A stretch of DNA of 53,804 bases, from the NCBI GenBank assembly GCA_044225365.1, contig JBGAIQ010000040.1:1-53804 (forward strand). The letters are read 5' to 3'. The notes beneath the pieces were generated by a model. The model did no database searches, was not told the origin of the DNA, and was given only the letters and a program-made list of their open reading frames with translations. Made by a program: the position numbers and the translations under genes. The DNA comes from Planctomycetota bacterium (GTDB taxonomy: Bacteria > Planctomycetota > B15-G4 > JADJEK01). Positions 24,651 through 53,804 of the stretch are shown in pieces (the stretch's first letter is position 1; each line of letters begins with the position of its first letter).

Positions 24651-25640
24651 TCAGCCGATCCTCGCCACGCGCACCACCTGCCGATCGTCGCGCAATGAGT
24701 CGGTCGGCTTCGTGTACGTGGTCTGCACCGCGCGCTCGACGATCGCGCCGGGCTTCATCGAAGGCTCGTCGGGCGGGTCGTCGATGAGCGACTTCATCGC
24801 GCCGTAGGTGCCGCAGCCGGAGATGCCGGCGGCGAGGATCGTGGTCACCTCCTCGGTCGTGCCGAGGGGACGATATGCGACGAACAGGATGCCGGCGTCG
24901 AGCGATTCGACGCCGCTGCCCTTGAAGTCGGCCTGCGCGATGACTTTGTTCTTCTCGACGTCGGCGACGCCCATCTTGTCGAAGCCGTCGACGCCGAGGA
25001 TGCTCTTGTGGAGGCGCTTGTCCTCGGCGAGGCGAAGGCGCGGCCCGCCGAGGTTTCCCTTCTTGCTGCGCAGGCCGCCGCGATAGAGGGCGCAGAGCGC
25101 TTCCTCGGCGACGGGATTGACCTTCGGTGAGCCGACGATGACGACGTTGCGCGTCTTCATGAGATCGAGGACTTGCTGGCGTTCGGCTTCGCCGAAGGCC
25201 TGCTTGCTGAAGCACAGCATCTCGTCGCGGATGTCGGGGACGTGACGGCGCAGGAACGACAGGAAATCCGACTGGGCACGGAAGTCCCAGAGGTCGAGCG
25301 TGGTGCGCAGTTGCGCGGTGCTCCGATCGGACTGGTCGGGCGAATGCACGACGTCGTGCGTGCCGAAGATGAACGTCACGGATTTGCGCGCCGAGAACGA
25401 CGAGATGAACTCGAGTTCGTCGTGCTGCAGAGTGAACAGCTCGGTGATATCGGTGATCGAGAGACGCGCGGCGAGGCGCTCGATCGTGTCGCGACGGATC
25501 TCACGGAAGTGGCCGCCGATGAGCTTCTCGAGCGTGCTCCGTGCGATGCCGGACTCCCGCGCGAACTCGATCGTGTTGCGACCTGACTTGCGAATGGCTC
25601 TCGCGACGTGACTGACGAGACGCATCGATTCCTCGAACAT
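24651..25640 (-). CDS. XRE/Cro-type HTH regulator with large alpha/beta C-terminal domain
   Basis: FARESGIARSTLEKL...IRRDTIERLAARL; C-terminal NVVIVGSPKVN, DAGILF, ILAAGISGCGTYGA; start set at ATG 25640. Confidence 0.75.
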   Translation of the reverse strand: MFEESMRLVSHVARAIRKSGRNTIEFARESGIARSTLEKLIGGHFREIRRDTIERLAARLSITDITELFTLQHDELEFISSFSARKSVTFIFGTHDVVHSPDQSDRSTAQLRTTLDLWDFRAQSDFLSFLRRHVPDIRDEMLCFSKQAFGEAERQQVLDLMKTRNVVIVGSPKVNPVAEEALCALYRGGLRSKKGNLGGPRLRLAEDKRLHKSILGVDGFDKMGVADVEKNKVIAQADFKGSGVESLDAGILFVAYRPLGTTEEVTTILAAGISGCGTYGAMKSLIDDPPDEPSMKPGAIVERAVQTTYTKPTDSLRDDRQVVRVARIG

Positions 25641-25712
25641 GGACCCGGAACGAACGACGTAGATGCGCGGCGGTGGCGTGCGAGGATAGCAAACGGCGAT
25701 AGGATCTCGCGC

Positions 25713-26753
25713 GTGGTGCCAGCGAGCGAACCTCTTCGTGGAGATGCGACCTGCGACGTCGTCGTGTTGGGCGGCGGTCTTGCGGGGCGGGGGGCCGCGA
25801 TCGCGCTCGCGGAGCGCGGCGCCGACGTCGTCGTCCTCGGGCTGCACGTCCGGAGCCGGCGGCTTTCCGGCAGCGGGCTCCTGCTCCGCGGGCTCTTCGG
25901 CGACGCTTCGGAATACCGTGAGAATATCGCGGGCCGCGACATCGATGCGCTCGACGCGATGGCGAAGGAGAACGCCGCGATCGTCACTCGACTCTGCGGC
26001 GTCATGACGAACGAATCGGGAGCGCCGACTCTCGTGAATGCCGCCGTACTGCGCGATGGCGCGAGTCCTCCCGCCGCGGAGGATCTCGTCGTCGACCTCC
26101 CGGCGTTCGGTCGCGGGCTCGACGAGAGGATGCGCATGCTCGGAATTCGGGTCGTCGAGGGCGAGCCCGTGATCGCACTCGACTCGAGTGCGATGGGCGT
26201 GGTGGCTTCCTCGAAGAGCGCGACGGTCCGCGCGTCGCGGGCCGTGCTCGCGCTCGGCGCGTGGCTCCCCGCGTTCGATCCCTGGGTCGCCGCGTGCGCG
26301 CGGGCGGGGCGGGCGCAGTACTGCGTCACGGCGCCGTACGCGCGCTCGGTCACACCGCGGGTCGTGCGAAACCGCGTCGAACTCGCTCAACACGGACGCG
26401 ACGGTTCGGGGCGTATCGTCGCGATCGAGGGCTCGGTGATCGCGGACCGTGGCGACGCCTTCGACGCCGCTCCGGATTCGATGGTCCAGGCGCGACTCGA
26501 GGAGGTGATCCTCGGTGCCGCGCCTGGCGCCACGATCGAGGAGCGCGGCGCGCTCCCCCGTCTCTACACCTGCGACGGGCTGCCGCTCGTCGGCCCGCAC
26601 CCGATGCGCGCGAGTTGCGTCCTCGTCGCGGGGTTCAACGGGTTCGATCTGTCGCTAGCGTTCGCCGCGGGTCGTATCGCCACGGATTGGATCGTCGACG
26701 GTCGCCCGAGAGACGATCGTTCGCTTCGATTCTCGCCACGTCGAATGCTATGA
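25713..26753 (+). CDS. FAD-dependent oxidoreductase (DAO/glycine oxidase-like)
   Basis: DVVVLGGGLAG, VLALGAW, TCDGLPLVGP, AGFNG, FSPRR; GTG 25713 lies 7 nt after TAGGAT. Confidence 0.82.
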   Translation: MVPASEPLRGDATCDVVVLGGGLAGRGAAIALAERGADVVVLGLHVRSRRLSGSGLLLRGLFGDASEYRENIAGRDIDALDAMAKENAAIVTRLCGVMTNESGAPTLVNAAVLRDGASPPAAEDLVVDLPAFGRGLDERMRMLGIRVVEGEPVIALDSSAMGVVASSKSATVRASRAVLALGAWLPAFDPWVAACARAGRAQYCVTAPYARSVTPRVVRNRVELAQHGRDGSGRIVAIEGSVIADRGDAFDAAPDSMVQARLEEVILGAAPGATIEERGALPRLYTCDGLPLVGPHPMRASCVLVAGFNGFDLSLAFAAGRIATDWIVDGRPRDDRSLRFSPRRML

Positions 26754-26769
26754 ATTCCCATGTCGTCGA

Positions 26770-27273
26770 TCAGCCCGGCGGCGGGTCGACGAGGCCGCAA
26801 CTCGCGCACTCGAATTCGGCGTAGAAGAAGTCCGACGACATTCCCTGCTTCGCGATCGCGTATTCATCGTGCGCACCGCACGAGATGCTCACGTTGTGGG
26901 AGTCCGGACGGTTCGCGACGTAGCCGCCCGACCATGTCAATCGCACCGCGCCCGACACCGGCACTTCGGTGAGCGTGCCAGAATAGTTCGCGATGTTGCA
27001 GTAGGAAGGGCTGCCGGCAATCGGAATCAAGGTCACCGAGAACGAGACCTGGCATTGCTGACTCGGTGCGCACTTGGAGCCGTCCCAGACGCACGTCCCG
27101 TTCGAGTGGGACGTGACCACGCACTGCGTGGTGAAGCACTCGTCGCTGCCGAGGGCCGTCGATGACGGGGTGTAGTAGAACGTACAGGGTCCGCAGATCG
27201 GGTCCGCGAACGCGGACACTGCGAGCATGTACGACAACGTAATGACGAGAAGGAGCCGGGTTCTGAAACTCAT
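26770..27273 (-). CDS. Small Cys-rich secreted protein
   Basis: Signal peptide MSFRTRLLLVITLSYMLAVSAFA, many Cys, AAAGGGGA RBS. Confidence 0.7.
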   Translation of the reverse strand: MSFRTRLLLVITLSYMLAVSAFADPICGPCTFYYTPSSTALGSDECFTTQCVVTSHSNGTCVWDGSKCAPSQQCQVSFSVTLIPIAGSPSYCNIANYSGTLTEVPVSGAVRLTWSGGYVANRPDSHNVSISCGAHDEYAIAKQGMSSDFFYAEFECASCGLVDPPPG

Positions 27274-27359
27274 GCTGAAATCCCCTTTGAGACAATAGGA
27301 CACTCTTGCCGCAAACCGGGTGAGGTCGCGAGCCGGCAGAGGGCTAGTTTTGCGGCGGG

Positions 27360-28115
27360 TTACTTCGAAGTCGGGTGCGAGTTTCCGGCTCGCTTTTCGA
27401 TGTAGTCTTGAATCGTTGCGATCGCCTTGCACTTCGCGTCGTAGAGCGCGAGCCGTGCGCGATCGTATTCGGGGTCGTCGCCCCAGTGATTCGCGTAGGT
27501 GTAGGTCTGTCCGCCCCGGGTCACGAGGCCCATCTCGACCTCGGGATCCTCGGATTGCGGAATCCGGTATCCTCTCGCATTCTCGCGGACGGCGACGGGC
27601 AGTCGTCCGAGATCGTACTGACGCGAGACGTAGTTCGAACGGGCGCTCTCGCGCGCGATTCCGGGCTCGATGAGGGTTCGGCTGAGGTCGCGTAACAAGT
27701 CGTCGAGATGCTTGGACGCCTCCCGATCGAGTTCGCGGTGGTGGGGATTCAAGGCGTCGTTCCCGAGGACCGTGGCAGCATCTTTCGCGCGCGTGCTGAA
27801 GTCCCACTCGACCCCGGGCAGGATCTCGCTCGGCGATCGCGGCGCCTTCTCCGCGGCGCTTTCCGGTCGACTCTCCGGTTTACTTTCCGGGATGTTCTCG
27901 GGGGACGCCGAGTCGAGTCGGGCGACTTCGATTCGAGTCGGGGCCGACGGTTCGAGCGCCGAGCTCGGCGAGGACATGCTCGCGGTCGCGCGAGGTTCGT
28001 CAGGCTCCCGATCCGAACTCCTGTATTCGACCTTCTGGAGCATCCAGAGGATCGGAACTGCACTCAGCATCGATACGGCCAATGCGATCTTCTTCATCGA
28101 TCGATGGTTCCTCAT
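27360..28115 (-). CDS. Hypothetical protein with N-terminal membrane anchor
   Basis: MKKIALAVSMLSAVPILWML followed by a Pro/Ser/Glu linker and a helical domain. Confidence 0.65.
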   Translation of the reverse strand: MRNHRSMKKIALAVSMLSAVPILWMLQKVEYRSSDREPDEPRATASMSSPSSALEPSAPTRIEVARLDSASPENIPESKPESRPESAAEKAPRSPSEILPGVEWDFSTRAKDAATVLGNDALNPHHRELDREASKHLDDLLRDLSRTLIEPGIARESARSNYVSRQYDLGRLPVAVRENARGYRIPQSEDPEVEMGLVTRGGQTYTYANHWGDDPEYDRARLALYDAKCKAIATIQDYIEKRAGNSHPTSK

Positions 28116-39326: not shown

Positions 39327-39911
39327 GTGTTGGACCCAGGATTGGAACAGCTCGCAGAGTGCACTCGGCGCATCGGCGAACTCGAGCCGAGTGCGCAGAA
39401 GTCGTTCGCGCCCACATTGTATCGCGAGATGCACGCGGTCGCGAGCGGCCTCCTGCGTCGCAACAAACCCGGAGAGACGCTGCAGCCGACCGCGCTGGTG
39501 CACGAGGCTTGGCTCAAGATCTCCAAACTCGAGCCGAGAGTCGAGCGCGGTCGCATGCAGTTCCTCGCGCTCGCCGCCAAGGCGATGCGCTCCGTGCTGG
39601 TCGATCACGCGCGGTCCAAGGGGGCCGATCGCCGCGGAGGCGCGCGGACGCGCGAGACACTTCATGACGTCACGCTCGCGTCGCAGGTGGATGCCGGCGA
39701 TCTCGTCGACCTCGACGAGGTCCTCCGCGAATTCGAGCGCGTCGATCCCGTGCGAGCGGCGATCGTCGAATTGATCTTCTTCGGCGGCCTGTCCGCGGAA
39801 GAAACGGCGGACGTGCTCGGTGTGTCGCGACGGTCGGTCGAACGCGGCTGGGTCATTGCGCGCGCCTGGTTGCATCGGCAGCTCGTGGGACGAGTCGAGC
39901 CCTCGCCATGA
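39327..39911 (+). CDS. ECF sigma factor, TIGR02999/ECF43-like
   Basis: TLQPTALVHEAWLKI, AAKAMRSVLVDHARSKGADRRGG, VELIFFGGLSAEETADVLGVSRRSVERGW. Confidence 0.92.
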   Translation: MLDPGLEQLAECTRRIGELEPSAQKSFAPTLYREMHAVASGLLRRNKPGETLQPTALVHEAWLKISKLEPRVERGRMQFLALAAKAMRSVLVDHARSKGADRRGGARTRETLHDVTLASQVDAGDLVDLDEVLREFERVDPVRAAIVELIFFGGLSAEETADVLGVSRRSVERGWVIARAWLHRQLVGRVEPSP

Positions 39912-42388
39912 GTTCGGAATGGGGGAATTGGGAGCGCGTCGCGGCGATCGTCGACGATTTGCTCGAACTTCCGAGCGCCGAGCGCGACGCTTCGATCGAG
40001 AGCCGTTGCGGCGACGACATGGAGTTGAAAGGCGCCGTGCGCGAATTGCTCGCGTCGATCGCGAGCGCCGAAACGGACGACTTCCTCGCCAAGCCCGCCG
40101 CCGTCGAACACGGTTTTCCCGAGGATCCGATCGCTACGAGTCTCGAGGGATCGGTCGTTGGCGGATTCGAGATCGGAGCCGTTCTCGGTCGAGGCGGGAT
40201 GGGCGTCGTCTTTGCCGCGAAGCAGAAACAGCCCGATCGACAGGTGGCCGTCAAGGTCCTCCGCCCGATCCATGCGTCGCGCGACGCGATCTCCCGGTTC
40301 GAAGTGGAGGCCGAGATCCTCGGCCGACTGCATCATCCCGGCATCGCGAGCGTCTTCGCATCCGGTATCCACCGCTTCGAAGGCGACGGACTCGCGTTCG
40401 TTCTGCCGTGGTACGCGATGGAGTTCATCGACGGCGCGCGCACCCTCACGGAGCACGTTCGCAGCGAAGCGCTTCCGCGATCCGCGCGCTTCGAGTTGTT
40501 CGCGCGAGTCTGCGACGCCGTCGCCCACGCCCACGCGATGGGAGTCATCCACCGCGACTTGAAGCCGGCCAACATCCTGGTCGACCACGACGGCCATCCC
40601 AAGGTCATCGACTTCGGGATCGCGCGCGCGCTCGGCGCCGATGGCGAGGCGAGGACGCGACATACCCACACCGGACAGTTGATCGGAACGCTGCGCTACA
40701 TGTCGCCCGAGCAGATCGATGGCGATCCGCGGCGCATCGACGTGCGCTGCGACGTCTACGCGCTCGGAGCGATCCTCTACGAGATCCTCGCCGGGCGGCC
40801 TGCCTTCGCGGTCGATGAATCGAGCATCGTCGATGCGATCTCCATCCTGCGCTCCTCCGAGCCTCTCGCGCTCTCCAAGATCGACCCCACGCTGCGCGGC
40901 GAACCCGAGTGGATCGTGCTGCGGGCGATGGAGAAGGACGTAGGACGGCGCTACGCGGGCGCCGCCGCTCTTCGCGACGACTGCAAACGCCTGCTCGCCC
41001 ACGAAGCGCTGGAGGCCGGCCCCCCGAGCGGGATCTATCGCGTCGCGAAGTTCGCGCGCCGCCATCGCGTCCTCGTGGGAGCGATCACGAGCGTCGTTCT
41101 CGCCCTCAGCGTCGGTCTGATCGCGACTCAGCGCGCACTGCAGCGAGCGATCCTCGCCGAAGCGAAGGCGACCGACGAAGCGACGACCTCGAATCAGGTC
41201 GTCGAGATGTTCCGCAGGGTCTTCGATTCGGCCTGCACCCAGAACAAGGGGCGCGAGCTCAAAGTGGTCGACGCGCTCTCCGACGCGGCCAGCTTCACGA
41301 TCTCCGAACTCTCGGCGAAGCCATACCTCGCCGCGCGGCTCATCGCGCAGATCTCGGGACTCCATAGCTCGCTCGGCAATCTGAAGGAGTCGCTCGAACT
41401 CGCCGAGCGCTCGATCGAACTCCTCGAGGCGGACGGACGACGGCTCACCGACGACGCGCTGACGATGCGCATCTCGGTCGTCGAATTGCGCGAGCGTCTC
41501 GGTGACTTCGATGGCGCCCGCAGGATGCTCGACGAATCCGAAGCGCTCGCGGCCACGTTCCTGCCGCCCGAATCCGCAGCACGCATCGATCTCGAGTTCG
41601 AACGCGGACTCCTGTTCGTGCGCAAGGGTGATGCGACGGCCGCCGAGCCCGTACTGCGCGCGGTCTGCGCAAGACGCGAAGCGCTCCTCGGAACGGACGA
41701 CGTGAACACGATCGCCGCGTGGAGCACGCTCAACGTCGTGCTGCTCGATCAGGGGAAGTTCGCCGAGGCCGAACCGATCGCGCGCCGATCGCTCGAGCAG
41801 ATGGAGCGCCTCCGGGGCCGCGACGATCCGGCATCGATCACGATGCGGGTCAATCTCGCATCGCTCCTCGGCGAAGCCGCCATCGGCAAGTATGCCGAAG
41901 CGCGCGATCAACTCATCGAAGCGCTCTCGTCGTACGAGCGAGTCACCGGTCTCGACTTCCCGGATGCCATCCTTGCCCTCGTGAACCTCGGCACGATCCG
42001 CAGCAGTCTCGACGAGAACGATCAGGCCATCGCCGATCTCGACACCGCGTGCGGACGCGCGAAGAACAAGTTCGGCCCCGCGCATCCGACGACGCTTCAA
42101 GCCATCTCCGCGCTTGCTCGCGTGAAGCTGTCCCTAGGCCGAATCGAGGAGGCGGAGAAGTCGCTCCGCGACGCCCTCGCCGCCGCGGCCGCGGCCTCGC
42201 AGGAACACGACATCATGTTCTTCCGCCTGCAGGCGACCCACGCCGACGCGCTGCGGCGGCTCGGCCGCACCGACGAAGCGCGCGCGCTCCTCACGGAAGC
42301 CCACGCGAAAGTGCGCCTCGCCCTCGGCGACGACGCCCAGGAAGTGCAGGACATGGCCGCGAGCCTGCGCAAGCTCGGGGCGAATTGA
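39908..42388 (+). CDS. Ser/Thr protein kinase with TM helix and TPR repeats
   Basis: LGRGGMGVV, VAVK, HRDLKPAN, DFGIA, YMSPEQ, C-terminal TPR-like repeats; ATGA overlap with the ECF gene. Confidence 0.92.
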   Translation: MSSEWGNWERVAAIVDDLLELPSAERDASIESRCGDDMELKGAVRELLASIASAETDDFLAKPAAVEHGFPEDPIATSLEGSVVGGFEIGAVLGRGGMGVVFAAKQKQPDRQVAVKVLRPIHASRDAISRFEVEAEILGRLHHPGIASVFASGIHRFEGDGLAFVLPWYAMEFIDGARTLTEHVRSEALPRSARFELFARVCDAVAHAHAMGVIHRDLKPANILVDHDGHPKVIDFGIARALGADGEARTRHTHTGQLIGTLRYMSPEQIDGDPRRIDVRCDVYALGAILYEILAGRPAFAVDESSIVDAISILRSSEPLALSKIDPTLRGEPEWIVLRAMEKDVGRRYAGAAALRDDCKRLLAHEALEAGPPSGIYRVAKFARRHRVLVGAITSVVLALSVGLIATQRALQRAILAEAKATDEATTSNQVVEMFRRVFDSACTQNKGRELKVVDALSDAASFTISELSAKPYLAARLIAQISGLHSSLGNLKESLELAERSIELLEADGRRLTDDALTMRISVVELRERLGDFDGARRMLDESEALAATFLPPESAARIDLEFERGLLFVRKGDATAAEPVLRAVCARREALLGTDDVNTIAAWSTLNVVLLDQGKFAEAEPIARRSLEQMERLRGRDDPASITMRVNLASLLGEAAIGKYAEARDQLIEALSSYERVTGLDFPDAILALVNLGTIRSSLDENDQAIADLDTACGRAKNKFGPAHPTTLQAISALARVKLSLGRIEEAEKSLRDALAAAAAASQEHDIMFFRLQATHADALRRLGRTDEARALLTEAHAKVRLALGDDAQEVQDMAASLRKLGAN

Positions 42389-42541
42389 GCGCCGGCTCGC
42401 GGCCACGCGCGCCGGCGTCTTCACGCGCGCCGTGATCGTCCTTGCGGTCGTAGGCGTTCCCGGATACGTTCACACCCCCTGTCGAGGCGTTGACCCCAAG
42501 GAAGCGATTTCACCATCGCTCCCGAGCCTTGACTCGGACAA

Positions 42542-42619
42542 CGGGCCGTAGCTCAGCTTGGCTAGAGTGCTTGCTTGGGGTGCAAGAGGTCGGGAGTTCA
42601 AATCTCCTCGGCCCGACCA
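42542..42619 (+). tRNA. tRNA-Pro(GGG)
   Basis: Acceptor stem CGGGCCG/CGGCCCG-A-CCA, anticodon stem CTTGC/GCAAG with loop TTGGGGT, T-loop GTTCAAATC. Confidence 0.95.
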
Positions 42620-42725
42620 GACATAAAAGAGGCAGCAGAGGGGGGTTCGAAGCCCCGCGAAGGTCAAAGTGACCCCCCTCCGCTCCTGTTTCTACGCCAC
42701 GTTTACGCCATGACTCCAAAAGGGC

Positions 42726-44051
42726 ATGGCGACGCGGAAGCTCGAAGGAGCCCCGCGGTGGAAGGAGCAGGAGCCAATGCAGATTCGCCACACCAGCCCG
42801 CCCCAGATCGTTTGGAAGGAGCGCGTCGGCGACCGTTGGGTCGGACGCACGCTCACCGTCAACGCGAAGAACCTCGAGGCCTACGGCATCGCCGCGCCCG
42901 CGAGTCGGGATCGCAAGGCGATCACGCCGTGGCACGCGAAGCGATTGCTGAACGTGCTGCGCGACCTCGAGCGCGAAACCCGAGAGAAGGGTCACGATCG
43001 GCTGCGCATCACCCTGCGCGAGATGATCGACATCTTCCTCACGAACATGCGGGTCGCGCCCGGCTTTGGTCGCCGCCGCGAGCGCGCGCTGCGATCGGGG
43101 GCGAAGATCACGATCGACGAGAAGGGAAAGGAGAAGCGGCCGCCGAACCTCAAGCACGTCGACATCAGCCTGCTCTCGTCCGTCGGCGACCTTCCGCTGC
43201 GATCGATCACGAGCGAGCACGTGCTGCGCCACCAGCGATTCCTCGAGTCGCAGGGCTACGCGCCGATGTCCGTCCGAGGCTTCCTGCTCGACGTCCGCGC
43301 GCTGTTCAACTACGCGGTGCGCCACAACTACCTCGACCGCAGCCCGGCCGAGCGCGTCACGCTGCCGCCGAGCGAGCCGACGTCCGGCCTGCGCTTCCTG
43401 AGTCAGGACCAGATCGACAAGCTCCTCGAGATCGCAGGCGACCCGTTGAAGTACGACCCGGACAAGCGCAACCATCTCGAGCGATCCACGAAGAAGGGTC
43501 GCAGCGGCTTCCTGCCGGCGATCGGCAACAACGTGATCTCCCAGGTCCTTCCTGGTTTCCTCTACCTCGGCGTGCGGCGCAGCGAGCTTTGCCGCATTCG
43601 CTGGAGCGACGTCGACTTCGAGCGAGGCATCGTCCGGATCCGAGGCGCGCGCAAGAATCCGGCGCGGGTGGAGCGCATTCGCGAGTTGCCGATCCCCAAC
43701 CAGTTCTTGCCATTCCTCAGCAGTCGCCCACGGACTTCCGAGTTCGTGTTCACGAACTCGACGGGCAAGCCGTGGAACGTAAATTCGCTTGGGTCGGCAT
43801 TGCGCCACTTCGTGGAGACCCATCACGAACGGCTCGGCTTCGACTTCGACTTCCAGACCCTGCGGCGAACCTATGGTTCGACTCTGTACGGCAAGAGGTT
43901 GTCGATGGACCAGATCGCGACATTCCTTGGACACTCCGACGTTTCGACGACCCGCACGTGGTACGTGAGTCTGAAGGCCGAGGATCTTCGTGAAAAGGTT
44001 ACGGCAGCGTTCGCTTCGAGATCCGGCCGGAAGGCGACGGCATCGACCTGA
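42726..44051 (+). CDS. Tyrosine recombinase / integrase
   Basis: LYLGVRRSELCRIRWSDVDF, FQTLRRTYGS, LGHSDVSTTRTWY; SAM-like domain upstream. Confidence 0.92.
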   Translation: MATRKLEGAPRWKEQEPMQIRHTSPPQIVWKERVGDRWVGRTLTVNAKNLEAYGIAAPASRDRKAITPWHAKRLLNVLRDLERETREKGHDRLRITLREMIDIFLTNMRVAPGFGRRRERALRSGAKITIDEKGKEKRPPNLKHVDISLLSSVGDLPLRSITSEHVLRHQRFLESQGYAPMSVRGFLLDVRALFNYAVRHNYLDRSPAERVTLPPSEPTSGLRFLSQDQIDKLLEIAGDPLKYDPDKRNHLERSTKKGRSGFLPAIGNNVISQVLPGFLYLGVRRSELCRIRWSDVDFERGIVRIRGARKNPARVERIRELPIPNQFLPFLSSRPRTSEFVFTNSTGKPWNVNSLGSALRHFVETHHERLGFDFDFQTLRRTYGSTLYGKRLSMDQIATFLGHSDVSTTRTWYVSLKAEDLREKVTAAFASRSGRKATAST

Positions 44052-44608
44052 ACAGCGGCATTCAATACGAGCGTTGCGGTTCGATCCGCCCTTCAAGCTC
44101 ACTCGTTCTGTCGTCGTTGGACCGATCGATATTCTTCGCGGCGAAGCGCGACGCCTTCGAAGCGGCGGTACGCGGCTTTTGGCGAGGTGCGCAGTACGCC
44201 CGCTGCTTCGTCGGTGGCGACTGGCTTCGTCGTTAGCTCGCCGGCGACACTCGCGTGGTCTACATTCGGCTGAGCCGCTCGAATGCGACGACCCCGGCGC
44301 GGTCGTCTCGTACCGTGTCGCTCTGCTCACTGCCGACCTAGACGGGAGGCGCGTCCACGAGGTCCAGGTCTCGGCGCATGGTGGGATCGGGATCCGCTCG
44401 GCGGAGTGCTCCGCTCGTGGTTCCTGCACGTCCAGCAGACCCGCGGCAAGTCCTTCACGTTCAAGGTCGACTTCGAGCCCTTGCGCCGCTCGGACCGCTC
44501 GTTCCGCGATCACTCCGGGTTGGCATTCGATGAAGCCGTGGAGCTTCAATGCGTGGGGCACGTGAACGCGGCACGATGTGGAGACGTCTGACTTCACGTG
44601 AACAGTCA

Positions 44609-44854
44609 TCACGGACGAGAGGCGGCGGCCTTCCGCTGACGTCGAAAAGGGGGCCGTCGAAACGTCGAGCTGGAATCGATCCAAGCGACGAGTTCGTCTC
44701 TTCTGACCAGGTAGGTTTGCCCGATCTTTCGGGCGGGCATGCCGAGCCGGAGGTAGCGGTAGATGGTCTTGGGGCGCTTGCGGAGCACCTCGGCGACCTC
44801 GGGGATCGTCAGATATATGCTCCGCAGGTCAGTCAGGGTACCGTTGTCATTCAT
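44609..44854 (-). CDS. Excisionase-like HTH protein (HTH_17 type)
   Basis: YLTIPEVAEVLRKRPKTIYRYLRLGMPARKIGQTYLVRRDELVAWI. Confidence 0.85.
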   Translation of the reverse strand: MNDNGTLTDLRSIYLTIPEVAEVLRKRPKTIYRYLRLGMPARKIGQTYLVRRDELVAWIDSSSTFRRPPFRRQRKAAASRP

Positions 44855-45608
44855 GGCGATTGTTTGTCAAGTAGCGTTGCTGGGGTAGATGAGACGCGAG
44901 CGGGAGCTTCTGAGATTCGCGCCAGGATTGAGAAGAACGGGAGCCGCAAACGGTTGAATCTCGATGATCGACGAGTTCGAGATTCTGAGATTCCAGCTCA
45001 CTGATCGCTCTCGCTCGCGAATCCGCGCCCGCATCGCCTTGATTTGTTATAGGAAACCTACGACAACTAAGGAGCCATCCATTCGGCCATATCGTGAGAG
45101 CGTGTCGTCTCCGGCGTCCTGCACGTCGATGACTCATAATCGAGTCTCGTGCCAACAAGCACGCGCGAATGCCGAAACACGCTCTCGCCGAACAGACTCC
45201 GCAGCATCGAGGTCGCTGTCAAAGGTTCTCCTGCGAAAAAGTCGTCAAAGCGAGCATGGATCGACCGCGACCCTCTGTGATCGCTCCGATTCTGCCCCTG
45301 AACTTGAGCCCGGTTGAGATCGGTTGGGCGCTCATGGATATCCGAAGGTACGTGAACTAGAATCCTTTCAGATAATCAAATCTCGCGTTCACGCGACGAT
45401 TCGGACGTCCATGTCCGTCGCAGGTTTTTTCCCGAATTGACTCTCGAAGGACACTCATCGCGCAGGGCGAATTCGGCACCTGGCGAGAGAATCTTGAATT
45501 GCCTTCTGAGCGTTCACTTACGCGCCGAGCGCGCGAATGGATCCTCTATCGAATGGCGACACTCTCGCCAGGACTGCACAAGATTTTCTCAGCTTTCTTT
45601 GACCTGGC

Positions 45609-46910
45609 TTGGTTGACGTCACGTCATTACCGGCTGGAGCGATACCTGTCGTATCGCCAAATTCACTCGACCACCCAGTACAAGGCAATCCCTCGATGAC
45701 CCATTCCATTCCTCCGATGTGCATCGACTTCCCCGACGACCCTCGCAAGCAAGATGCTTGTATAACAGGCCCCCAGCCCCTTCTCCGAGTCGTCGCAACC
45801 GGGATCGATACCGCCGTTTTCTCGGCCTACGGCAACATCCGTCCCGAAGCACTGGACGCAATGCGAGCCTGCGTCGATCGCTCCCTCGATTCCGAGCCTG
45901 GCGAAGCTCTCTTCAAGATCGCGAGGACTCGACATCTTGTCTACCATCGTCGAGATACCGAGCTTCATCTCGAAGCGCCGTGCCAGTACCACGTGAAACT
46001 CCGCACGACTGCGACGAGACTCCCGACCGCCGAAGTCACGCTGCGGTCGGAGTTCCTTTGGAGTATCTCCTTGGCGGATGCTCTTGAGCGCGTCGGCGAG
46101 GTCCTGGACTGGTTGATCGAGTCACCCGATTGTGCCCTGAGCCGCCTCGAGCTTGCCGTCGACGTTCAAGGCGGGGGGTTCTCGCTGCGTAACCTCCCAG
46201 CGCATTCGGACCCGCGCTGGGCGTCGAGTCTCAAACGGCGCAAAGGGGAGTACCACAATTCTCAGCCGATTGAGCTCCGCTTCGGATCACGCAGAAATGT
46301 CGAGGTCATGGTCTACAACAAGTCATACCAGGTCGAGAGGAAGCCATTCGCGGAGTTCATTTGGAAGATTTGGGAAGACAACGGTGGCTCGAGGACGGCC
46401 GAGACCACAAGGGTCGAGGTTCGAGTCACACGTGACGAGATCGCTGAGAGTTCAGTCCGAGAACGCGGCCCGATTCAAAAGAAGGCTCCCGCGATACTCG
46501 CCTATGCGAACGAACTCTGGCAAAAAGCCACTTCGAGCTGGCTGTGCCTGCTCTACCACCCATCGAATCGGCCACCCAAAGCACGGGATTGGCCTACCGA
46601 TCCCCGATGGCGGGTCATTCAGAATGAGCGATTCAGCTCGGAGCCGCCGCCGGTGCCGCGCATCTACCGACCGTCATTCGACATGGACAAGAACCTGTGC
46701 AGCATCGCTGGCTACTTGACGAGCTTCGCGGCGATGAGGCGAATCACCGATCCGGAGACTGTGCTTTCGATTCTTCAGAAGGAACTCGAGAAGCGTGGAC
46801 ACCTGCTCAGCATCGCGTTCAGGCGGCGCGTTGAACAGAAGATGGCTCGATATGGGGTCTTCCCAATCGATGACGATCGGTGTGAGGAAGGTCCGCCAAC
46901 GGCATCTTGA
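45609..46910 (+). CDS. Replication initiation factor-like protein (Rep_trans-type); true start uncertain
   Basis: Ordered motifs GIDT, LSRLELAVD, LRFGSR...VYNKS, RVEVR match the xRxDxAxD / Y.GS...YxK / RxE series of this family. Confidence 0.65.
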   Translation: MVDVTSLPAGAIPVVSPNSLDHPVQGNPSMTHSIPPMCIDFPDDPRKQDACITGPQPLLRVVATGIDTAVFSAYGNIRPEALDAMRACVDRSLDSEPGEALFKIARTRHLVYHRRDTELHLEAPCQYHVKLRTTATRLPTAEVTLRSEFLWSISLADALERVGEVLDWLIESPDCALSRLELAVDVQGGGFSLRNLPAHSDPRWASSLKRRKGEYHNSQPIELRFGSRRNVEVMVYNKSYQVERKPFAEFIWKIWEDNGGSRTAETTRVEVRVTRDEIAESSVRERGPIQKKAPAILAYANELWQKATSSWLCLLYHPSNRPPKARDWPTDPRWRVIQNERFSSEPPPVPRIYRPSFDMDKNLCSIAGYLTSFAAMRRITDPETVLSILQKELEKRGHLLSIAFRRRVEQKMARYGVFPIDDDRCEEGPPTAS

Positions 46911-46963
46911 GAAACCGAGATTCGAGATCGCGCAGATTGAGCACGATGGATCGTGCGTCGAGC

Positions 46964-48685
46964 TCAATCTGTGAGATCGAGTCGAACAGCATTGGAGTTC
47001 GAGAATCCTGCAGCCGCGCCAGCATCCAGGATGATCCCCTGAACGAAGATGGAGATGTCGCCAACGACATTTGGGACAAGGGCAGTGATCGAAAGCGACC
47101 CGGAACCGGGTGCCATCGAGCCCAATGGAAAGAGCAGAAGCGGACCAAGCAGATTCGGCAGCAGCGGGTAAGTGAGAAGCGTGCATCCGTGTCCCATGGG
47201 AATCGCAGACTGATTCGTGCCGACTCCGAGGAAGAGTTCGCCGCCTCCGACACCCTGGCCGACCTGAAGCTGCAAGGTCGAGCCGGATAGGGTACTCCCA
47301 GACGCATGAAGGAACGGAACGATGTTCCCGCTGCCCGGACAACCCGAACCGAAGTGAACGATCCCCTTCGTCGCATCGAACGCAAAGACGTGACCGCCGG
47401 CTCCGGGATACGCCACGTTCTCGGAACTCGCTCCGACGAGCAATTGTACGGAACCGATCGCGACTGAAGTTCCGAGCCCGGAGTTCGCGATGTTCGTTGG
47501 CGCCACGAGTTCGGCCTCGGGGACGAACTGTCCGTTCGGCGCCTTCACGAACGAGAATGCTCGCCCGACGTTGTCGCTCGGCGGTCCATCGCAGAAAGTC
47601 TGTCCGACGAGAAGCAGGGAGTCTCGCAGGTCGATCGACGCTCCGAAGGATGAGAAGCTCGGCGCGGCCGGACTCTGGAGCGATTGCGTGCTCGACCAGA
47701 TTCCGGTTATCGAATCGCGTCGATAGATCGAGACATGGCCTGTCGAGCCGAGAACGACGTCTCCACGGCTCGAGACCGCCATATCGTTTCCATCGAGTGA
47801 AACTGCGACTCCCAGAAGATCGTGGACGCCGGCAGTTCCGTAGATCGCCTGCTGCATGATCCAGGATCCCGACGCGCGTTGGAAGACATACGTCGCGCCA
47901 TCGGAGTTCGCATGTCCCGGCGCACCCACGACGATGGTGTCGCCGTCGAGATCGACGGCGGAGCCGAAGTTGTCGAAGACCGCCGCGTCGGGGGCCGTCA
48001 AGATGGCCGTCGGGAGCCAGACGCCTCCGATTCGCTCATAGACGTGGACGGTTCCGATCGTGCCGAGAATGGGATCGCTCTCCTCGGGCGAGCCGACGAC
48101 CAACGTCGAGCCCGCGAGCGAAACTGCGGAACCGAAGTAGTGGGCCGACGTGTACGGGCCGACGAACTGGGCAACCTGGGACCAGCCAAGGTTCGTTCGT
48201 CCGAAGACAAAAACGGCGCCGGTATTCTCGTGGGTCGCATCAAGCGAAAATGACGGTGCGCCTACGACAGCGACGTCTCCGTCGATTCCGACAGCGCCTC
48301 CTGCGGAGATTCCATTCTCGGGTACCGCCGGATCGAGCCGTGCTTCGAGAACCCATGCGTCTCCTTGCTGCCGGTAGACGTTCGCGAACCCGTTCGTCGG
48401 GTTCTGGGTGCTCGACGGAGAGAGGGTGTCGGGAGCTCCAACAATCCAGCGAACGCCATCGCAACTCATCGAGTAGCCGAATCGATCGAGCGGGTGGCTT
48501 GTCGGGGAGGTGAACTCGATCGAATGGGTGGTTGCCGTTGGAAAAGGCAGGGTCGCCGCATCCGCCGATCCCAAGGCAGCGGCCGCACATGCCAACCCGA
48601 CGGATAGGACCCACCATCGCCATGATCGCCAGCCGAACTTCGTGTCGCCTCCGCCATAGAGCGCGTGATTCTTCTGGGTACTCAT
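46964..48685 (-). CDS. Secreted FG-GAP (integrin-like beta-propeller) protein with shared C-terminal domain
   Basis: Repeats FG.AV.LDGDT.VVGAP...G.V.VF.R; signal-like segment; ends FVQGIILDAGAAAGFSNSNAV. Confidence 0.85.
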   Translation of the reverse strand: MSTQKNHALYGGGDTKFGWRSWRWWVLSVGLACAAAALGSADAATLPFPTATTHSIEFTSPTSHPLDRFGYSMSCDGVRWIVGAPDTLSPSSTQNPTNGFANVYRQQGDAWVLEARLDPAVPENGISAGGAVGIDGDVAVVGAPSFSLDATHENTGAVFVFGRTNLGWSQVAQFVGPYTSAHYFGSAVSLAGSTLVVGSPEESDPILGTIGTVHVYERIGGVWLPTAILTAPDAAVFDNFGSAVDLDGDTIVVGAPGHANSDGATYVFQRASGSWIMQQAIYGTAGVHDLLGVAVSLDGNDMAVSSRGDVVLGSTGHVSIYRRDSITGIWSSTQSLQSPAAPSFSSFGASIDLRDSLLLVGQTFCDGPPSDNVGRAFSFVKAPNGQFVPEAELVAPTNIANSGLGTSVAIGSVQLLVGASSENVAYPGAGGHVFAFDATKGIVHFGSGCPGSGNIVPFLHASGSTLSGSTLQLQVGQGVGGGELFLGVGTNQSAIPMGHGCTLLTYPLLPNLLGPLLLFPLGSMAPGSGSLSITALVPNVVGDISIFVQGIILDAGAAAGFSNSNAVRLDLTD

Positions 48686-48728
48686 CGCCTTGCTCCCTTG
48701 CTCGAGTGAGGATTCTCCAATGATGACG

Positions 48729-48758
48729 ATCGTCCACGGTCCATCGACCGTGGACGAT
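48729..48758. promoter_or_regulatory. Perfect 13-bp inverted repeat, probable operator
   Basis: ATCGTCCACGGTC-CATC-GACCGTGGACGAT between the divergent FG-GAP and XRE genes. Confidence 0.65.
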
Positions 48759-49050
48759 GAGCATACCAGATCGCGATCTTGTCGGCATGGTCGACGAGCA
48801 GCGAGCTAAGGCGATGGCGCGTGCCTTTGGGCAGGCCGTCAAATCACGCCGAGAGAAGCGCGGGATCGCTCAGGAACGGTTCGCATTCACCTGCGAGCTC
48901 GATCGGACGTTTGTCGGAGGCATCGAACGAGGGGAGCGAAACCCGAGTCTCGAAACGGTTCGGCGCATTGCGCGTGGCCTCGGCATTTCGATGACCGCTC
49001 TCGTTCGAGATGTAGAACGTATCCTCCACGACACCGAAGATGGGAGTTGA
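48757..49050 (+). CDS. XRE HTH regulator resembling restriction-modification controller (C) proteins; start may be 48787
   Basis: FGQAVKSRREKRGIAQERFA...LDRTFVGGIERGERNPSLETVRRIARGL. Confidence 0.88.
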   Translation: MSIPDRDLVGMVDEQRAKAMARAFGQAVKSRREKRGIAQERFAFTCELDRTFVGGIERGERNPSLETVRRIARGLGISMTALVRDVERILHDTEDGS

Positions 49051-49634
49051 CAGGTGCCTCCCGGAGAATGAGACGATTCTTTCGTTCCGATCCCGCTTTG
49101 GCCCGTCCGTCGCGTGCGGAGCCGATCGGCAGCCCCAGGGAGAAAGGGGCGCACGTGGCGATGGGGGTAGTCAGCCGGGGAGGGGTGCTGTTCGGATCGC
49201 TACGGCGGGCATCAAGGCACGCGGAGTGAAGGCGGTCAGTTGGAACTGAGTGGCGATGGCAGACGATCTGTACCTGGCTCAATTCGTGAGACTGTACGAG
49301 TTCGCCGCGACCCGAAGGATGGCAGCGGTTGCCCCGCGAAGGATGTCGTCGCCGCGACTCTTGGGGACCGATCACAAAGAAACGCGGGGGTTCCGCGCAG
49401 GCTTTGCGGGAAAGATCAGGTCGCCGCGGGTTCTGAGGATCGCCTACACATGTCGGACCTCTTGGCGGGCACCGGCAAATCTCGGGTCGCCGCCGGGCAC
49501 TTTCTCGAGCCGCCGCGACGCGCGCAATAGTCGATAGACGGCGTCAAGAACGGCAGGGTCGGGGTCGTCCTACTTGGCCAAGCCACGGCTGCTCGAGATG
49601 CGCCGATCGATAACACGAATCGATAGAATCTGCT

Positions 49635-50828
49635 GTGCACAACAAAACGCAGTTCGAGTCAATTGGCGTGAACACCCGGAACAGCGCGAAAGCGGAATCT
49701 GATTGGCGTTACGGCTATTGCTTCCCAAACCTGCAGCTGCGCGACGGTGAACGATTCGAGGTTCGGGAACTCGCCGTCGTCGGACCTACAGAGCAACGAG
49801 TCCTCGCCGCGGTGGCGGACCCAGCCGAGCCGGCGGTTAGCTGCCTGCATCGGTCGTTCCGGACGTCTCGACGGGAGAGGTTCGAGCCGTCCGTACTTCT
49901 CTTCAGGACAAATCAGCCACATAGTCTTTCGAAGGACGCGATCAAAGCTTTCCGAGATGCGGTCGCGATTGCGTGCCTGACGGGTGCCCGAGCACGAATG
50001 CTGGGCAACCACGGACAGTGGGAGTGCGTGTGGTCCGACTTCTTCGACTTCCACCCGATTGGTCCGACGGCGGACGGCAAAGACCTGATGTCGCTCGACT
50101 CCATCGTGCTCGCCTTTGACCCGGTGGGGAAGTACCGATTTCAGCCCTCACCGATGATCCTCAACCCGACTCACTTTCGAGTGGTCCATGATGAGGCGCT
50201 CTGGCCTCTGCTTGCTCGAGCATGGCGACTGCGCTTCTCGCTCCGAAGTCACAGGGGATTGCTGCGGCGCCTCTTTCGCGCGCTCGAGATCGCATTTCAT
50301 GCCTGTCGGTTTCCAACGGATGGGATCATGACGCTGCATGATGTTGGAACGCGCATCGCCCTTTGGATCAGCGCATTCGAGGTCCTGTTGCATCCGGGAA
50401 AGGCAGGCAGGGTCGATGAACCGCACGTGCTGCGCTTCATCGAGAAAATGGCGTGGACCGACACCGCGCTTCGGAGACCTCGGGGGAGGATCTCCTTGCA
50501 GAAGGGCAAGCTCTCGTTCAAGGCGACGCTCGCCATGAGGCTCTACCATGCGGCCTACAGAGCGAGAAACGACTTCACCCACGGGAACGAGGTCGCGGTC
50601 AGCAAGCTCATGTTCGGCTCGGGAGAGAAGAAACGACTCGACTACGTTCTGCCTGTCCTATTCGGTTCGGTGCTCGTCGCATGGCTCAAGGAACAGCTTC
50701 CGAGCTGCTGGGTGGATGATAAGGGGGAGTACATCCGCCGGCGCGGCATGAAGGAACACATCGATCTGTCGATGCGCGAAATTCCAGCCGCGAGAGATCG
50801 AGAAGCAGCACTTCTCACGCTGATCTAG
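49635..50828 (+). CDS. HEPN-domain protein (ApeA-like architecture), putative RNase
   Basis: LWISAFEVLL helix followed by AYRARNDFTHG (RxxxxH) in a helical C-terminal half. Confidence 0.7.
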   Translation: MHNKTQFESIGVNTRNSAKAESDWRYGYCFPNLQLRDGERFEVRELAVVGPTEQRVLAAVADPAEPAVSCLHRSFRTSRRERFEPSVLLFRTNQPHSLSKDAIKAFRDAVAIACLTGARARMLGNHGQWECVWSDFFDFHPIGPTADGKDLMSLDSIVLAFDPVGKYRFQPSPMILNPTHFRVVHDEALWPLLARAWRLRFSLRSHRGLLRRLFRALEIAFHACRFPTDGIMTLHDVGTRIALWISAFEVLLHPGKAGRVDEPHVLRFIEKMAWTDTALRRPRGRISLQKGKLSFKATLAMRLYHAAYRARNDFTHGNEVAVSKLMFGSGEKKRLDYVLPVLFGSVLVAWLKEQLPSCWVDDKGEYIRRRGMKEHIDLSMREIPAARDREAALLTLI

Positions 50829-52479
50829 GGGCATCGGCGAGAGTCGAGCAAACCACCAAGCTGACGCGCCACCCCGTCCCATTCGGCGCCTTGCCGTAAA
50901 TGCCAACCTTCTGACCGAGGTTCCCGATCGAGGCCGTCCCGATGAAGTAGGGCGAGGAGGCGCCACCCTCGAACGCATTCCAGTCGGTGGGATCGAGCGA
51001 CCCTCCCCAGAAGACCTGAATCGTGTTGTCCGACTTCACTCGAACCCGAAGGACCCTCGCCACCGAATCGAGCGCCGGGTCCGCGGCCACCGAACCGATC
51101 TCGGTGGGTGCACCATCGACGCCGCTGGCCCGCAAGACGAGGAAGCACTGCCCCCGATCCGTGACGTACACGATGTAGGCGTTGTCCTTATCCGTCGCCC
51201 GGAACATCACGCCGACCTCGCACGCTGTCGCGTCCGGCGTCGATACTGCGTCCTTCAAGACCTTCACCGCAACGTTCAGATCCGTCGCGAGGTTGCCCCC
51301 GACAATCGCATAGTCCGCACCACCCGGCGAGTCGTCGAGCGACGCCTGTTGCGACACGATCGTGAAGCCGTTCCCCGACCCCGCCTTCTGGTCCCAGGTC
51401 TCACCCGCGGAAGAGGTCCCGAGAGTGGAGGCGTTTCCCCGGTTGAAGGCGTCTCGGAAGTCCTTCGGCCGCTGCAGCGAAACTCCCGAACTCGTCGTCG
51501 CAGGGAAATCCTCCCGCCGCACGTCCACGAGTTCCGGAATCTGACCCACGGCGAAACTCTCGGGCACGATCGCCGCGGAGGACTCCGCCGTCAGGTAGCC
51601 GTACACTCCCTGTTGGGTGTGCACGAGGGCGTACGCCTCGTTCGTCCCGTCGAACGCGACGTGCGTGCCGCTGCGCGGCGCGAACGGCAGCCAGAGGCCC
51701 GCAAGAGCGTACCAGCGGTAGGCAAGGCCCGAAGCGAGGACGAGCCGCGTGTCGCCGTCCTGAATGCCCGAGGAAGGCAACAGCGACTTGCTGAGGACCG
51801 GGGGACCCCACAGGCCGATGCCCGGTTGGTCCTCCGCCCCGCGCACCCAGTTCGGCTGCCAGCGCGCCGCCGTGTCCTGAATCGGGTACAGGTTCCTGTT
51901 CTTGCCGTAGGCGCCCGTCTGGAACCCCATCACGATCGACGTTGCGTCCGAGTACCCAGAACCCGAGGGACGCTCGAACTTCACCTTGCCCGTCGCGGGG
52001 TTCGTCGTCGCACCCTGGATCAGGAGGCCCGTCGCCGTCGCGTACGCGACCGTCGAGCCCATCGCCGTGTTGATCTTCGCCACGATGTCGGCGAGCGTCC
52101 GCGCGTTCTGCGCGCTTCCGCCACCCGTGGACAGGTCGATCATCGTCGGACCCACGGCATCGACCGTCAACTTGATGAACTTCGCGTAGGTCAGGTCGAA
52201 GGTGCCGAGGCCCTTGCCCTGGATCCGCGCGTACCGGTCCACGCGCGCTTGGACCCGATTGTCCAAGTACGGCGTCGCCGAGGGGCGCTCCCACCAGCGC
52301 CGTCCCACCGTCGGCGTCGTCCCGACCAAGGTGTACGGGTAACTGATCCCGCGCTTCGCGAGCGCGAGGACGAGGTCCTTCGCGTCGCCACCACCTCCGG
52401 TGACGTTGTCCACCGAGACCGAGGAAACGGTCGGGTCCGTGCTCGTCGAGCGGATCAGCAAGTACCCCTCGAACGCGTT
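50815..52479 (-). pseudogene. Fragment of a probable phage virion structural gene
   Basis: About 550 codons with strong codon bias, Gly/Thr/Ser rich; no convincing start or RBS; 3' end runs into the end of the HEPN gene; adjacent to the capsid gene on the same strand. Confidence 0.5.
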
Positions 52480-53804
52480 ACGGAATGTGTCGACGTGAAT
52501 GAGGCCGGTGACGCGGGGATGCAGTGCGCATCGATATCTCTCATTGGGTGGTTCAAGGAGAGGGTTTTTCGCCGTTTAGATCGCTCATTTCTTTCACTTG
52601 GCTCGCAATGCCGTGAAGCTCGTCGAGATGACTCTCGGGGTAAAACCCGAGAAGGAATGGATTCTGGTGATTCGGTTCGGTGCATCGACTTCTCCGCTGA
52701 GATTCCAGTTCCCGATCCGATGCGAATAGATTCCGCCAGCGACTCGATGATATTGCAGACCTGGAGGCCCGCCACCACCCAGTTCGTCATGCAGCGCCGA
52801 GTCGCGCGGAACACCTGCGAAGAGTTCAGGATCAACGTGTCCACGAACGTCTTCTTGTGCTCCTCCCACGACACGCCGAAAGGAACCGTCTTGTCGAACG
52901 TGACGTTGCCTGCCGACGCGAAGTTGTAGAGGTCGTTGATGACTTCCCGGTCGATCTCGAACCGGATGATCTGCGCCAGCGCCGCGCCGATCTCCGCCTG
53001 TGCGTCGAGCCCGTGCAGTGCCTGCAGGTCCTGCGCCGCCTTCAGCGAGTGCCGACCACGGATCTTGCGCTCCTTCGCCTGCAGCGCCGCCGAGGTGATG
53101 TTCAGGTCCACCTGCGGAATGACGTCCGAGGCTTCCCAGTCGTAGGCGTACGTCGCCGTCGCCGCCGAAATGTTCTCCGTGAAGTCCAGCGTCACCGTGC
53201 CGTCCGAGTACGTGATCGCCGAACCGCCACCGATCGTCGGCGCCGCACCCGACGTCTGCGACAGCAGGATGATGCCACCGGCGCCGTCGTCACCGAAGAT
53301 GCCCACGCCCGTCGCGTACGTCACCGTCGCCCGGAACGTGCCCGGCTTCACCGGCGAGTACGCCAGCTTACCGCCCGTCGCGCCGACCGCGTTGTTCGAC
53401 GAGATCGTCATCACCTCGTTCGGAATCGTGTTCGAGGAGAAGTTCTCGACGTTCTTCGGACCGGTCCGCGCATCGAACAGCGCGTCACCCGAAGTGACAT
53501 CGCCCTTCGTCGTCCCCGCCAGGAAGTCCATGTAGAACACCAGCGACACCGGTCCCGCCATCGGCTGCACCGACACGATCTCCGAAGAGATCAGATTCGG
53601 GTAGATCGCCCGAATCATCGGGAAGGCGTACTTGTCGAAGTTGCCGATGTTCAGCACCTTCGTCGTTTCGAGCAGCGAATCCGGGTCCTTCCCCGACTCC
53701 CGGAAGTGCTTGTACTGGTTCTGGAACAGGATCGCGACCAGCGTCTTCTGCGGGCCAGAGAGACCGTCGCACAGCGCCTCCCACTTCGAGTGGGGGTGTG
53801 TTGC
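52455..53804 (-). pseudogene. T4 gp23-family major capsid protein, 3'-truncated (similarity ends near 52734; frame open to window edge)
   Basis: KWEALCDGL...VAILFQNQ, FPMIRAIYPNLISSEIVSVQPMAGPVSLVF, AKERKIR...AAQDLQALHGLDAQAE...IRFEIDREVI, NWVVAG; expected C-terminal VY.D / GYKG / YAPY / TRY motifs absent. Confidence 0.85.

Follow-up and report, generated by a model that had tools for sequence, protein, structure and literature searches.

A truncated capsid gene at the contig end

The 53,804-nt stretch of DNA analysed here (referred to as the window) is the whole of contig C23 from a 103-contig, 94% complete, metagenome-derived genome bin of a Planctomycetota bacterium, position 53804 being the contig end. 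Its right-hand part carries a fragment of a gp23-type major capsid gene (52737..53804, minus strand), which is joined by a short filler to a fragment of a second phage gene, within an island integrated at a tRNA-Pro gene. These sequences most likely represent a recent, deletion-scarred phage remnant, i.e. a kind of locus that is already known. With a slightly better than even probability, they are the dead remnant of the structural block of a contractile-tailed phage that was once an integrated prophage in this composite island.

The minus-strand frame extending from 53804 to 52455 is open up to a TGA codon at 52457-52455 and comprises 449 codons. The first 356 codons, which constitute the capsid gene fragment, correspond to residues ~20-372 of the closest homologue (P0002, 476 aa), and the 5' end of the gene is located off the contig. 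The translation was shown to carry SKWEALCDGLSGPQKTLVAILFQNQ, YPNLISSEIVSVQPMAGP, AAQDLQALHGLDAQAE, EIDREVIND, SPVKPGTFRATV...ITYSDGTVTLDF and NIIESLA, every one of the gp23 motifs quoted in a preliminary description of the window being present. The gp23-type assignment made in that description, for which a profile search had been proposed, was borne out by a match to Pfam PF07068 (Gp23; 146.4 bits with a cut-off of 24.4, E=2e-42), in which residues 53-356 align to profile positions 1-260 of 376, and by a match to PHROG 138 'major head protein' (E=3.2e-43, profile positions 9-320 of 444).

A search of 5.8 billion proteins returned 128 capsid relatives, nearly all of which are 445-530 aa in length, with P0002 being 75% identical to the fragment over 357 aa. 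Relatives with genomic context comprised two loci in genomes (50% and 42% identity), 36 metagenome contigs (best identity 52%) and, among viral contigs, the best 80 of 366 (top identity 43%); no context-bearing relative among these genome, viral and metagenome contigs approaches the 75% identity of P0002.

Several lines of analysis place the truncation before the C-terminal part of the gene, as previously described. Gp23 profile positions 261-376 are unmatched in the capsid frame. In an alignment with seven homologues (455-480 aa), ~24 N-terminal residues are missing, having been lost at the contig end, and the likeness to the homologues ends after NIIESLA, beyond which all seven continue for ~105 conserved C-terminal residues. 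Consistent with the alignment, tblastn placed the end of homology at 52737-52731, with one weaker homologue trailing to 52677. The G+C content at the first, second and third codon positions (GC1/2/3) was 0.56/0.44/0.90 for the homologous capsid part, compared with 0.49/0.64/0.48 for the 93 unrelated codons that follow it before the TGA stop (52455..52736, minus strand). The latter values represent a non-coding composition in that frame, in agreement with the earlier observation of non-protein-like sequence after NIIESLA. In related loci, a prohead protease gene is carried upstream of the capsid gene; here, the start codon would lie 24 codons beyond the contig end.

The preliminary description had also claimed an insertion of about 100 aa, rich in beta structure, in this gene. 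The same stretch was found in all seven aligned homologues as well as in the cultured Bacillus phage SP-15, and it is thus an ordinary domain of the capsid subfamily and no insertion.

An AlphaFold model of the intact homologue P0002 (predicted local distance difference test score 86.3, predicted template modelling score 0.70) contains seven beta strands after residue 372. The model matches the head protein of phage P1 (Foldseek E=1.3e-24) and T4 gp23* structures, with E values ranging from 1e-24 to 1e-17, and it is for this intact homologue, rather than for the truncated protein, that the HK97-like fold with a T4-type extra domain was shown. The truncated capsid product would be predicted not to assemble a shell, because the last seven beta strands of the fold have been lost.

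The missing C-terminal part was searched for throughout the assembly. Four full-length homologues used as tblastn queries (E≤10) against the 103 contigs gave chance-level matches only outside C23. A profile of the C-terminal region built from 44 homologues, run with filters off against all six-frame segments of the assembly, returned one match with an E value of 6.6, and the Pfam Gp23 model applied to the whole assembly did not reveal a missing capsid end. By tblastn and C-terminal profile, the lost part is present neither nearby nor elsewhere in the assembly.

The adjacent gene fragment and the filler junction

To the left of the capsid gene fragment, an open reading frame (ORF) of 548 aa is located at 50815..52461 on the minus strand, with a homologous core at ~50873-52478. 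Exhaustive phmmer searching identified four homologous proteins (P0124-P0127; 1,010-1,042 aa, E=1e-120 to 7e-97), residues ~119-659 of which align to residues 1-534 of the ORF, with the phmmer matches themselves covering query residues 1-529. Relative to this ~1,000-aa family, the ORF is without ~120 N-terminal and ~380 C-terminal residues, and its last 18 codons and stop codon are provided by unrelated DNA to the left of a breakpoint at ~50872. The missing ends were not found in the assembly. On alignment, the ORF is regarded as an internal fragment of a tail-fibre-like virion protein gene, broken at both ends. The label 'tail-fibre-like' is based on the position of the homologous gene after the baseplate wedge and tail genes in a related phage contig (G401:C1) and from one weak 'virion structural protein' PHROG match of a relative. 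The ORF itself had no match in Pfam, PHROG, NCBIfam or PADLOC; a word-index search returned only a repeat match with 9% coverage, and a language-model atlas placed it at 0.78-0.79 to viral hypothetical clusters, which serves as a lead only. Homologues of the ~1,000-aa protein were found neither by a pattern scan of viral and metagenome contigs nor in the flanks of 120 stored loci. The GC3 of the two phage fragments, capsid and neighbour, was 0.86-0.90.

The filler that separates the two fragments (52479..52736) is 258 bp in length with a G+C content of 53%. The capsid frame crosses it and ends seven codons into the frame of the other gene. No second copy of the filler was identified in the assembly or in the stored loci, and it contains no promoter- or terminator-like site and no notable terminal repeats. 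A repeat or mobile element was considered for the filler and rejected, as there is no second copy and there are no convincing terminal repeats. The scar may have been made by end-joining; end-joining with filler is a possible mechanism because the genome encodes Ku (E=4.8e-38).

Breakpoints in independently assembled contigs

The window was compared with Logan contigs, not raw reads, from four runs: X1 (the probable source run), X2 (the same sample as X1), X3 (another study) and X4 (a third study). In ten further runs (X5-X14), 5-11% of the window words were present. An X1 contig of 3,172 nt (depth 8.25) covers 50633-53804 with 0 differences across all three breaks, and, like the window, stops at 53804. 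In X2, one contig crosses 52478/52479. The junctions, which the preliminary description had proposed to check for spanning sequence, were accordingly found to be spanned, all three by X1 and one by X2.

The contigs from the other two studies leave the window at the same places. The X3 and X4 capsid contigs start to match exactly at 52737, preceded by 40 and 76 letters, respectively, that do not match; both runs also leave the window at 50873, where the match in X4 begins after 141 unmatched letters, and an X3 contig matches 52241-52478 before running on unlike the window. The loose ends of X3 were translated by hand. At 52478, NTGLSGTYAY precedes AFEGYLLIRS (homologue consensus TYAY..GYLLIRS), and at 50873, KTVFVAAFA follows ...NGTG (homologue consensus GKxVYVxxFIAR). 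These loose ends fit the homologue consensus, indicating that the neighbouring gene continues normally at both ends in X3.

The identity between X3 and the window was ~98.8%, the capsid part differing at 10 of 807 nt and the neighbouring fragment at 12 of 966 nt. Among the listed single-base differences, 7/10 in the capsid frame and 13/18 in the neighbouring frame are synonymous, which shows that both were real coding frames in the phage lineage and says nothing on selection after the break. The open frame of about 355 codons had been taken to imply either recent capture or selection. A recent date fits the similarity to sequence from an independent study; selection is not needed, as the intact 356-codon frame is accounted for by a divergence of only ~1.2% from X3.

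Gene order in related phages

In related loci, the genes are arranged in the order head-maturation protease, capsid, small ORF, head-tail adaptor, neck, sheath, tube and baseplate hub. The best genome-level relative, the 129.5-kb contig G401:C1, encodes a capsid protein with 50-55% identity at ~54.35-53.0 kb and, in the same orientation, a 1,028-aa homologue of the tail-fibre-like protein at ~22.7-20.1 kb. Between these two genes lie the adaptor, sheath, tube, hub, tape measure, baseplate hub/lysozyme, baseplate wedge and tail protein genes. G401:C1 is the one relative in which both genes were found on one contig, with a spacing of ~31 kb and the tail-fibre-like gene downstream of the capsid gene. 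Based on this order and spacing, the window looks like the same module with ~31 kb cut out. Structural genes of 16 related loci (protease, adaptor, sheath, tube, hub and others) had no match in the assembly at E<1e-6. With both genes truncated and no protease, adaptor, sheath, tube or hub homologue in the 103 contigs, the locus does not represent an intact prophage.

Three of the related phage contigs (L005:4215-5387, L006:207-1328 and L007:4690-5811) encode Ser/Thr protein kinase homologues (PHROG 2361, E=1.3e-18), which match several host contigs with E values of 1e-10 to 1e-14. Two further ORFs, L014:18584-19915 and L015:18012-19493, match an adenylosuccinate-lyase-like host gene on contig C2 (E=4e-7 and 2e-9, respectively), and by sequence likeness they may be phage-borne purine metabolism genes. 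A weak tblastn match on contig C2 was rejected as a phage gene, since its translation was judged by eye to be that of the adenylosuccinate-lyase-like host gene.

The tRNA-Pro island

The phage fragments are located in an element that was previously described as tRNA-integrated, and this description was corroborated by the presence of a tRNA-Pro gene, an adjoining tyrosine integrase gene and a perfect 50-bp direct repeat, with copies at C23:42574-42623 and C30:719-768. The tRNA-Pro gene (anticodon GGG; 42542..42619, plus strand; ARAGORN, Rfam tRNA 60.9 bits) is the integration target. The left repeat, attL (42574..42623, plus strand), starts in the anticodon loop and stops 4 nt beyond the 3' end of the tRNA gene; its counterpart attR is identical at 50/50 positions and has the same orientation, and a 30-mer of the repeat has no further occurrence in the 103 contigs. 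No tRNA gene was found in C30:1-1500. The island begins at C23:42574, continues past the end of that contig into an unseen gap and finishes at C30:768.

The integrase (441 aa; 42726..44051, plus strand) matches Pfam Phage_integrase (E=1.1e-17) and PHROG 1 integrase (E=7.6e-39). Its gene has a GC3 of 0.85, compared with 0.83 for the host kinase gene next door. It is followed by lower-GC cargo, including short ORFs (44052..50871; GC 0.53-0.66, GC3 0.67-0.71), and the island looks composite. The cargo includes a possible Rep_trans-like protein (433 aa; 45609-46910, plus strand; atlas score 0.97 with 221 shared features, Pfam E=0.098, PHROG 'endonuclease' E=8.7e-6, these matches serving as a lead only), an FG-GAP repeat protein (573 aa; 46964-48685, minus strand; Pfam FG-GAP_2 E=5.7e-35) and a hypothetical protein of 397 aa (49635-50828, plus strand). 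If the Rep_trans assignment is real, the left half of the island would represent a small integrative replicating element.

At the right end of the island, the C terminus of a SLOG cluster-4 (LDcluster4) protein (Pfam E=2e-22) is encoded at C30:1-450, the gene running off the start of C30. The octamer CTACGCCA was observed inside both island ends, i.e. at 42692-42699 of the window, with a near copy at ~42704, and in C30 at 527 and 539 (plus strand) and at 677 (minus strand); to judge from their placement in the sequence, these octamers may be arm-type integrase binding sites. A sub-threshold Rfam ribozyme match was recorded at 42616-42730 (19.1 bits, compared with a gathering score of 38), and the host gene to the left of the tRNA gene (39908-42388) encodes a kinase-TPR protein. 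Over 42000-53804, the X1 Logan depths were 11.8 for the host flank and 8.82 and 8.25 for the island contigs. Some cells may be without the island, the contig depths being too crude to decide this.

Alternative explanations and origin of the fragments

An assembly chimera, in which the junctions would join DNA of different molecules, is very unlikely. It would be in keeping with a metagenome-bin contig that ends inside a gene, at the same base as the Logan contig, and with the use of contigs rather than raw reads; against this, the separately assembled X1 contig spans the three breakpoints without a difference and at even depth, the second run of the same sample bridges 52478/52479, and an assembler could not have been misled by a second copy of the filler, as none was identified. 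A capsid gene that is split by an intron, intein or mobile insertion, or recoded, and still functional is of negligible probability. The precedent for such an arrangement is the capsid gene of SP-15, among the closest cultured relatives (L085, record 25479-27996), which is annotated as joined across an endonuclease-bearing insert at a conserved AAQ motif. That split is located near residue 272 of the homologue and not at 372, a difference on which the SP-15 site was ruled out as a counterpart of the present breakpoint. Moreover, beyond the tRNA and the sub-threshold ribozyme match, no Rfam family, introns included, was found at E≤1 in 40000-53804, the filler included, and the filler RNA folds no better than shuffled sequences (z=-0.93). 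With no intron RNA, no structure signal and no completing downstream exon in the assembly, the break is not a simple insertion or intron.

The suggestion in the preliminary description that the capsid fragment might poison assembly or act as a decoy found nothing in its favour, the adjacent gene being broken at both ends, which is a pattern of decay. That the truncated protein is kept as useful, poisoning the shell of incoming related phages or baiting a sensor, is considered highly improbable. The 356 codons without a stop codon or frameshift, the further 93 open codons and the circulation of near-identical phages in similar habitats would agree with such a role. However, an open frame is expected without selection at the divergence observed, and the synonymous excess separates the window from lineages that leave it at the breakpoints, which assigns the selection to the phage. 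In composition, the end of the frame is non-coding, none of the 12 island ORFs matches a PADLOC defence family (E≤0.001), and there is no promoter-like site nearby, the 5' end of the gene being unseen. In the mechanism that this would entail, to which an equally slight probability is attached, a still open and N-terminally complete fragment retaining early-assembly surfaces would enter the procapsids of a ~99%-identical phage and stop their closure; if true, the prophage fossil would act as a dominant-negative superinfection block.

The capsid gene is dead under either of the two remaining origins, of which an integrated prophage is favoured over captured phage DNA. The setting with an integrase and att sites speaks for a prophage origin, as does the fact that both fragments have retained their order and strand. 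In the sequence of events envisaged, a colinear phage genome would have lost everything between capsid codon ~372 and tail-fibre-like codon ~120 (~31 kb in the closest placeable relative), both stumps would have been joined by the 258 bp of filler DNA, and a further break at ~50872 would have removed the last ~380 codons of the tail-fibre-like gene; the capsid frame would then read 93 meaningless codons into the filler. We infer that the phage DNA formerly resided at this site as an integrated prophage and that the truncated gene product is non-functional. Of the earlier proposal of a remnant of a large temperate phage, the phage remnant stands; the large temperate nature of the phage is unproven, as outlined below.

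It is possible, though less likely, that the fragments instead derive from a large myovirus that infected the cell without integrating, and that illegitimate or end-joining recombination joined these pieces and brought them into a small integrative island already resident there, with an integrase and a possible rolling-circle Rep. Several observations speak for such a capture and weigh against a prophage origin. A tyrosine integrase was found in none (0/4) of the related viral records, nor on G401:C1, six integrase matches in G401 being located on other contigs, and the sizes and CheckV completeness of these records imply genomes of ~150-230 kb. In X3, the phage pieces have a depth of 2-4, whereas 42788-50667, on the integrase side of the island, has 0-0.33 and the host flank is almost absent. 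The left part of the island differs in GC3 and has the possible Rep_trans-like gene, of 400 other genomes of the phylum, only one gave a Gp23 match, and Ku is present. On the other side, the fragments keep the strand and order of the related phage, a single internal deletion being a simpler explanation for this than random pieces having been joined; they match the integrase and host neighbour genes in GC3; and the relatives share only 36-50% capsid identity, so that their lifestyle tells little. The reading of the locus as a dead prophage remnant is also weakened by points of a more general kind. The content of the gap between C23 and C30 is unseen and could hold more phage DNA, and the assembly holds no contigs shorter than 5,088 bases, meaning that absence from the assembly is not absence from the cell. 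Contig placement clips below 90% likeness, so that any of the three breakpoints could in principle reflect abrupt sequence divergence instead. For the X3 and X4 phages, an intact capsid gene is suggested by the other two junctions, the letters to the left of 52737 being unseen. Finally, the capsid frame was open across the filler in 460 of 20,000 mononucleotide shuffles (2.3%) and is thus more open than expected by chance.

The sole other Gp23 match among these 400 genomes, G385:C205:14131-15306, is a full-length frame of 466 aa with a much higher profile score (493.6 bits), and it probably stems from another phage lineage or from a phage contig that was sorted into a bin.

Relationship to known systems and significance

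The capsid fragment belongs to an uncultured subfamily (455-480 aa) of the T4 gp23 family (PF07068), to which it is linked by the strong profile match and the 75% identity of the closest relative. The P0002 model superposes on T4 gp23* at 20-22% sequence identity (Foldseek E ~1e-19). Compared with the family, the gene in the window has only the first 260 of the 376 profile positions, and the identity to T4-like cyanophage capsids is ~29%. The best cultured matches to the intact homologue were Listeria phage LIS04, Bacillus phage SP-15, Streptococcus phage vB_SagM-GXN1 and Bacillus phage vB_BceM-HSE3 (32-37% identity over 90-98%). These cultured large myoviruses share the beta-rich domain; however, they have Firmicutes hosts, genomes of 124-222 kb and complete genes, that of SP-15 being interrupted elsewhere. 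The best structural match of the P0002 model, the head protein of phage P1 (PDB 9ukm), has 14% sequence identity. Phage P1 is temperate and is maintained as a plasmid, not integrated at a tRNA gene. With a temperate phage as the best structural match, this capsid type is not confined to lytic phages, and its occurrence in a lysogen would have a precedent.

Phage satellites provide a further comparison. The Ccm protein of Staphylococcus aureus pathogenicity islands (SaPIs) is a capsid-protein homologue that redirects helper capsid assembly, and such homologues have complete folds. The present locus resembles this system as a chromosomal island with a capsid-fold gene that could meet the capsid protein of an incoming phage, and differs from it in that the fragment is without its last seven strands and ends in junk sequence. 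A closer likeness is to cryptic or 'grounded' defective prophages, which, in the portions of the literature drawn on here, keep an integrase and att sites and have lost structural genes to deletions (PMC6379469, PMC7744054). In contrast to these, the surviving fragments described here are ~99% identical to phage DNA in other samples, and the capsid type is rare in the phylum.

What is new here is the recognition of the neighbouring gene as an internal fragment, its ~31-kb distance from the capsid gene in G401:C1, the filler joining both fragments, the breakpoints in contigs of other studies and the perfect att pair. For annotation, a gene caller would report a major capsid protein of normal length, even though the final 93 residues are junk and part of the fold is missing. 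Knowledge of capsids or of lysogeny is unchanged, and the modest interest of the locus is in the youth of the remnant and in the link between host and phage. The locus captures decay at an early stage, at ~1% from phage DNA that is still present in other samples and with a clean deletion-plus-filler junction. For the neighbouring T4-like clade Far-T4, the portion of a 2015 study drawn on here reports that close relatives were not found among microbial genomes (PMC4360716). Through the fossil, a bacterium from a bioreactor is connected with large gp23-type myoviruses of an uncultured group.

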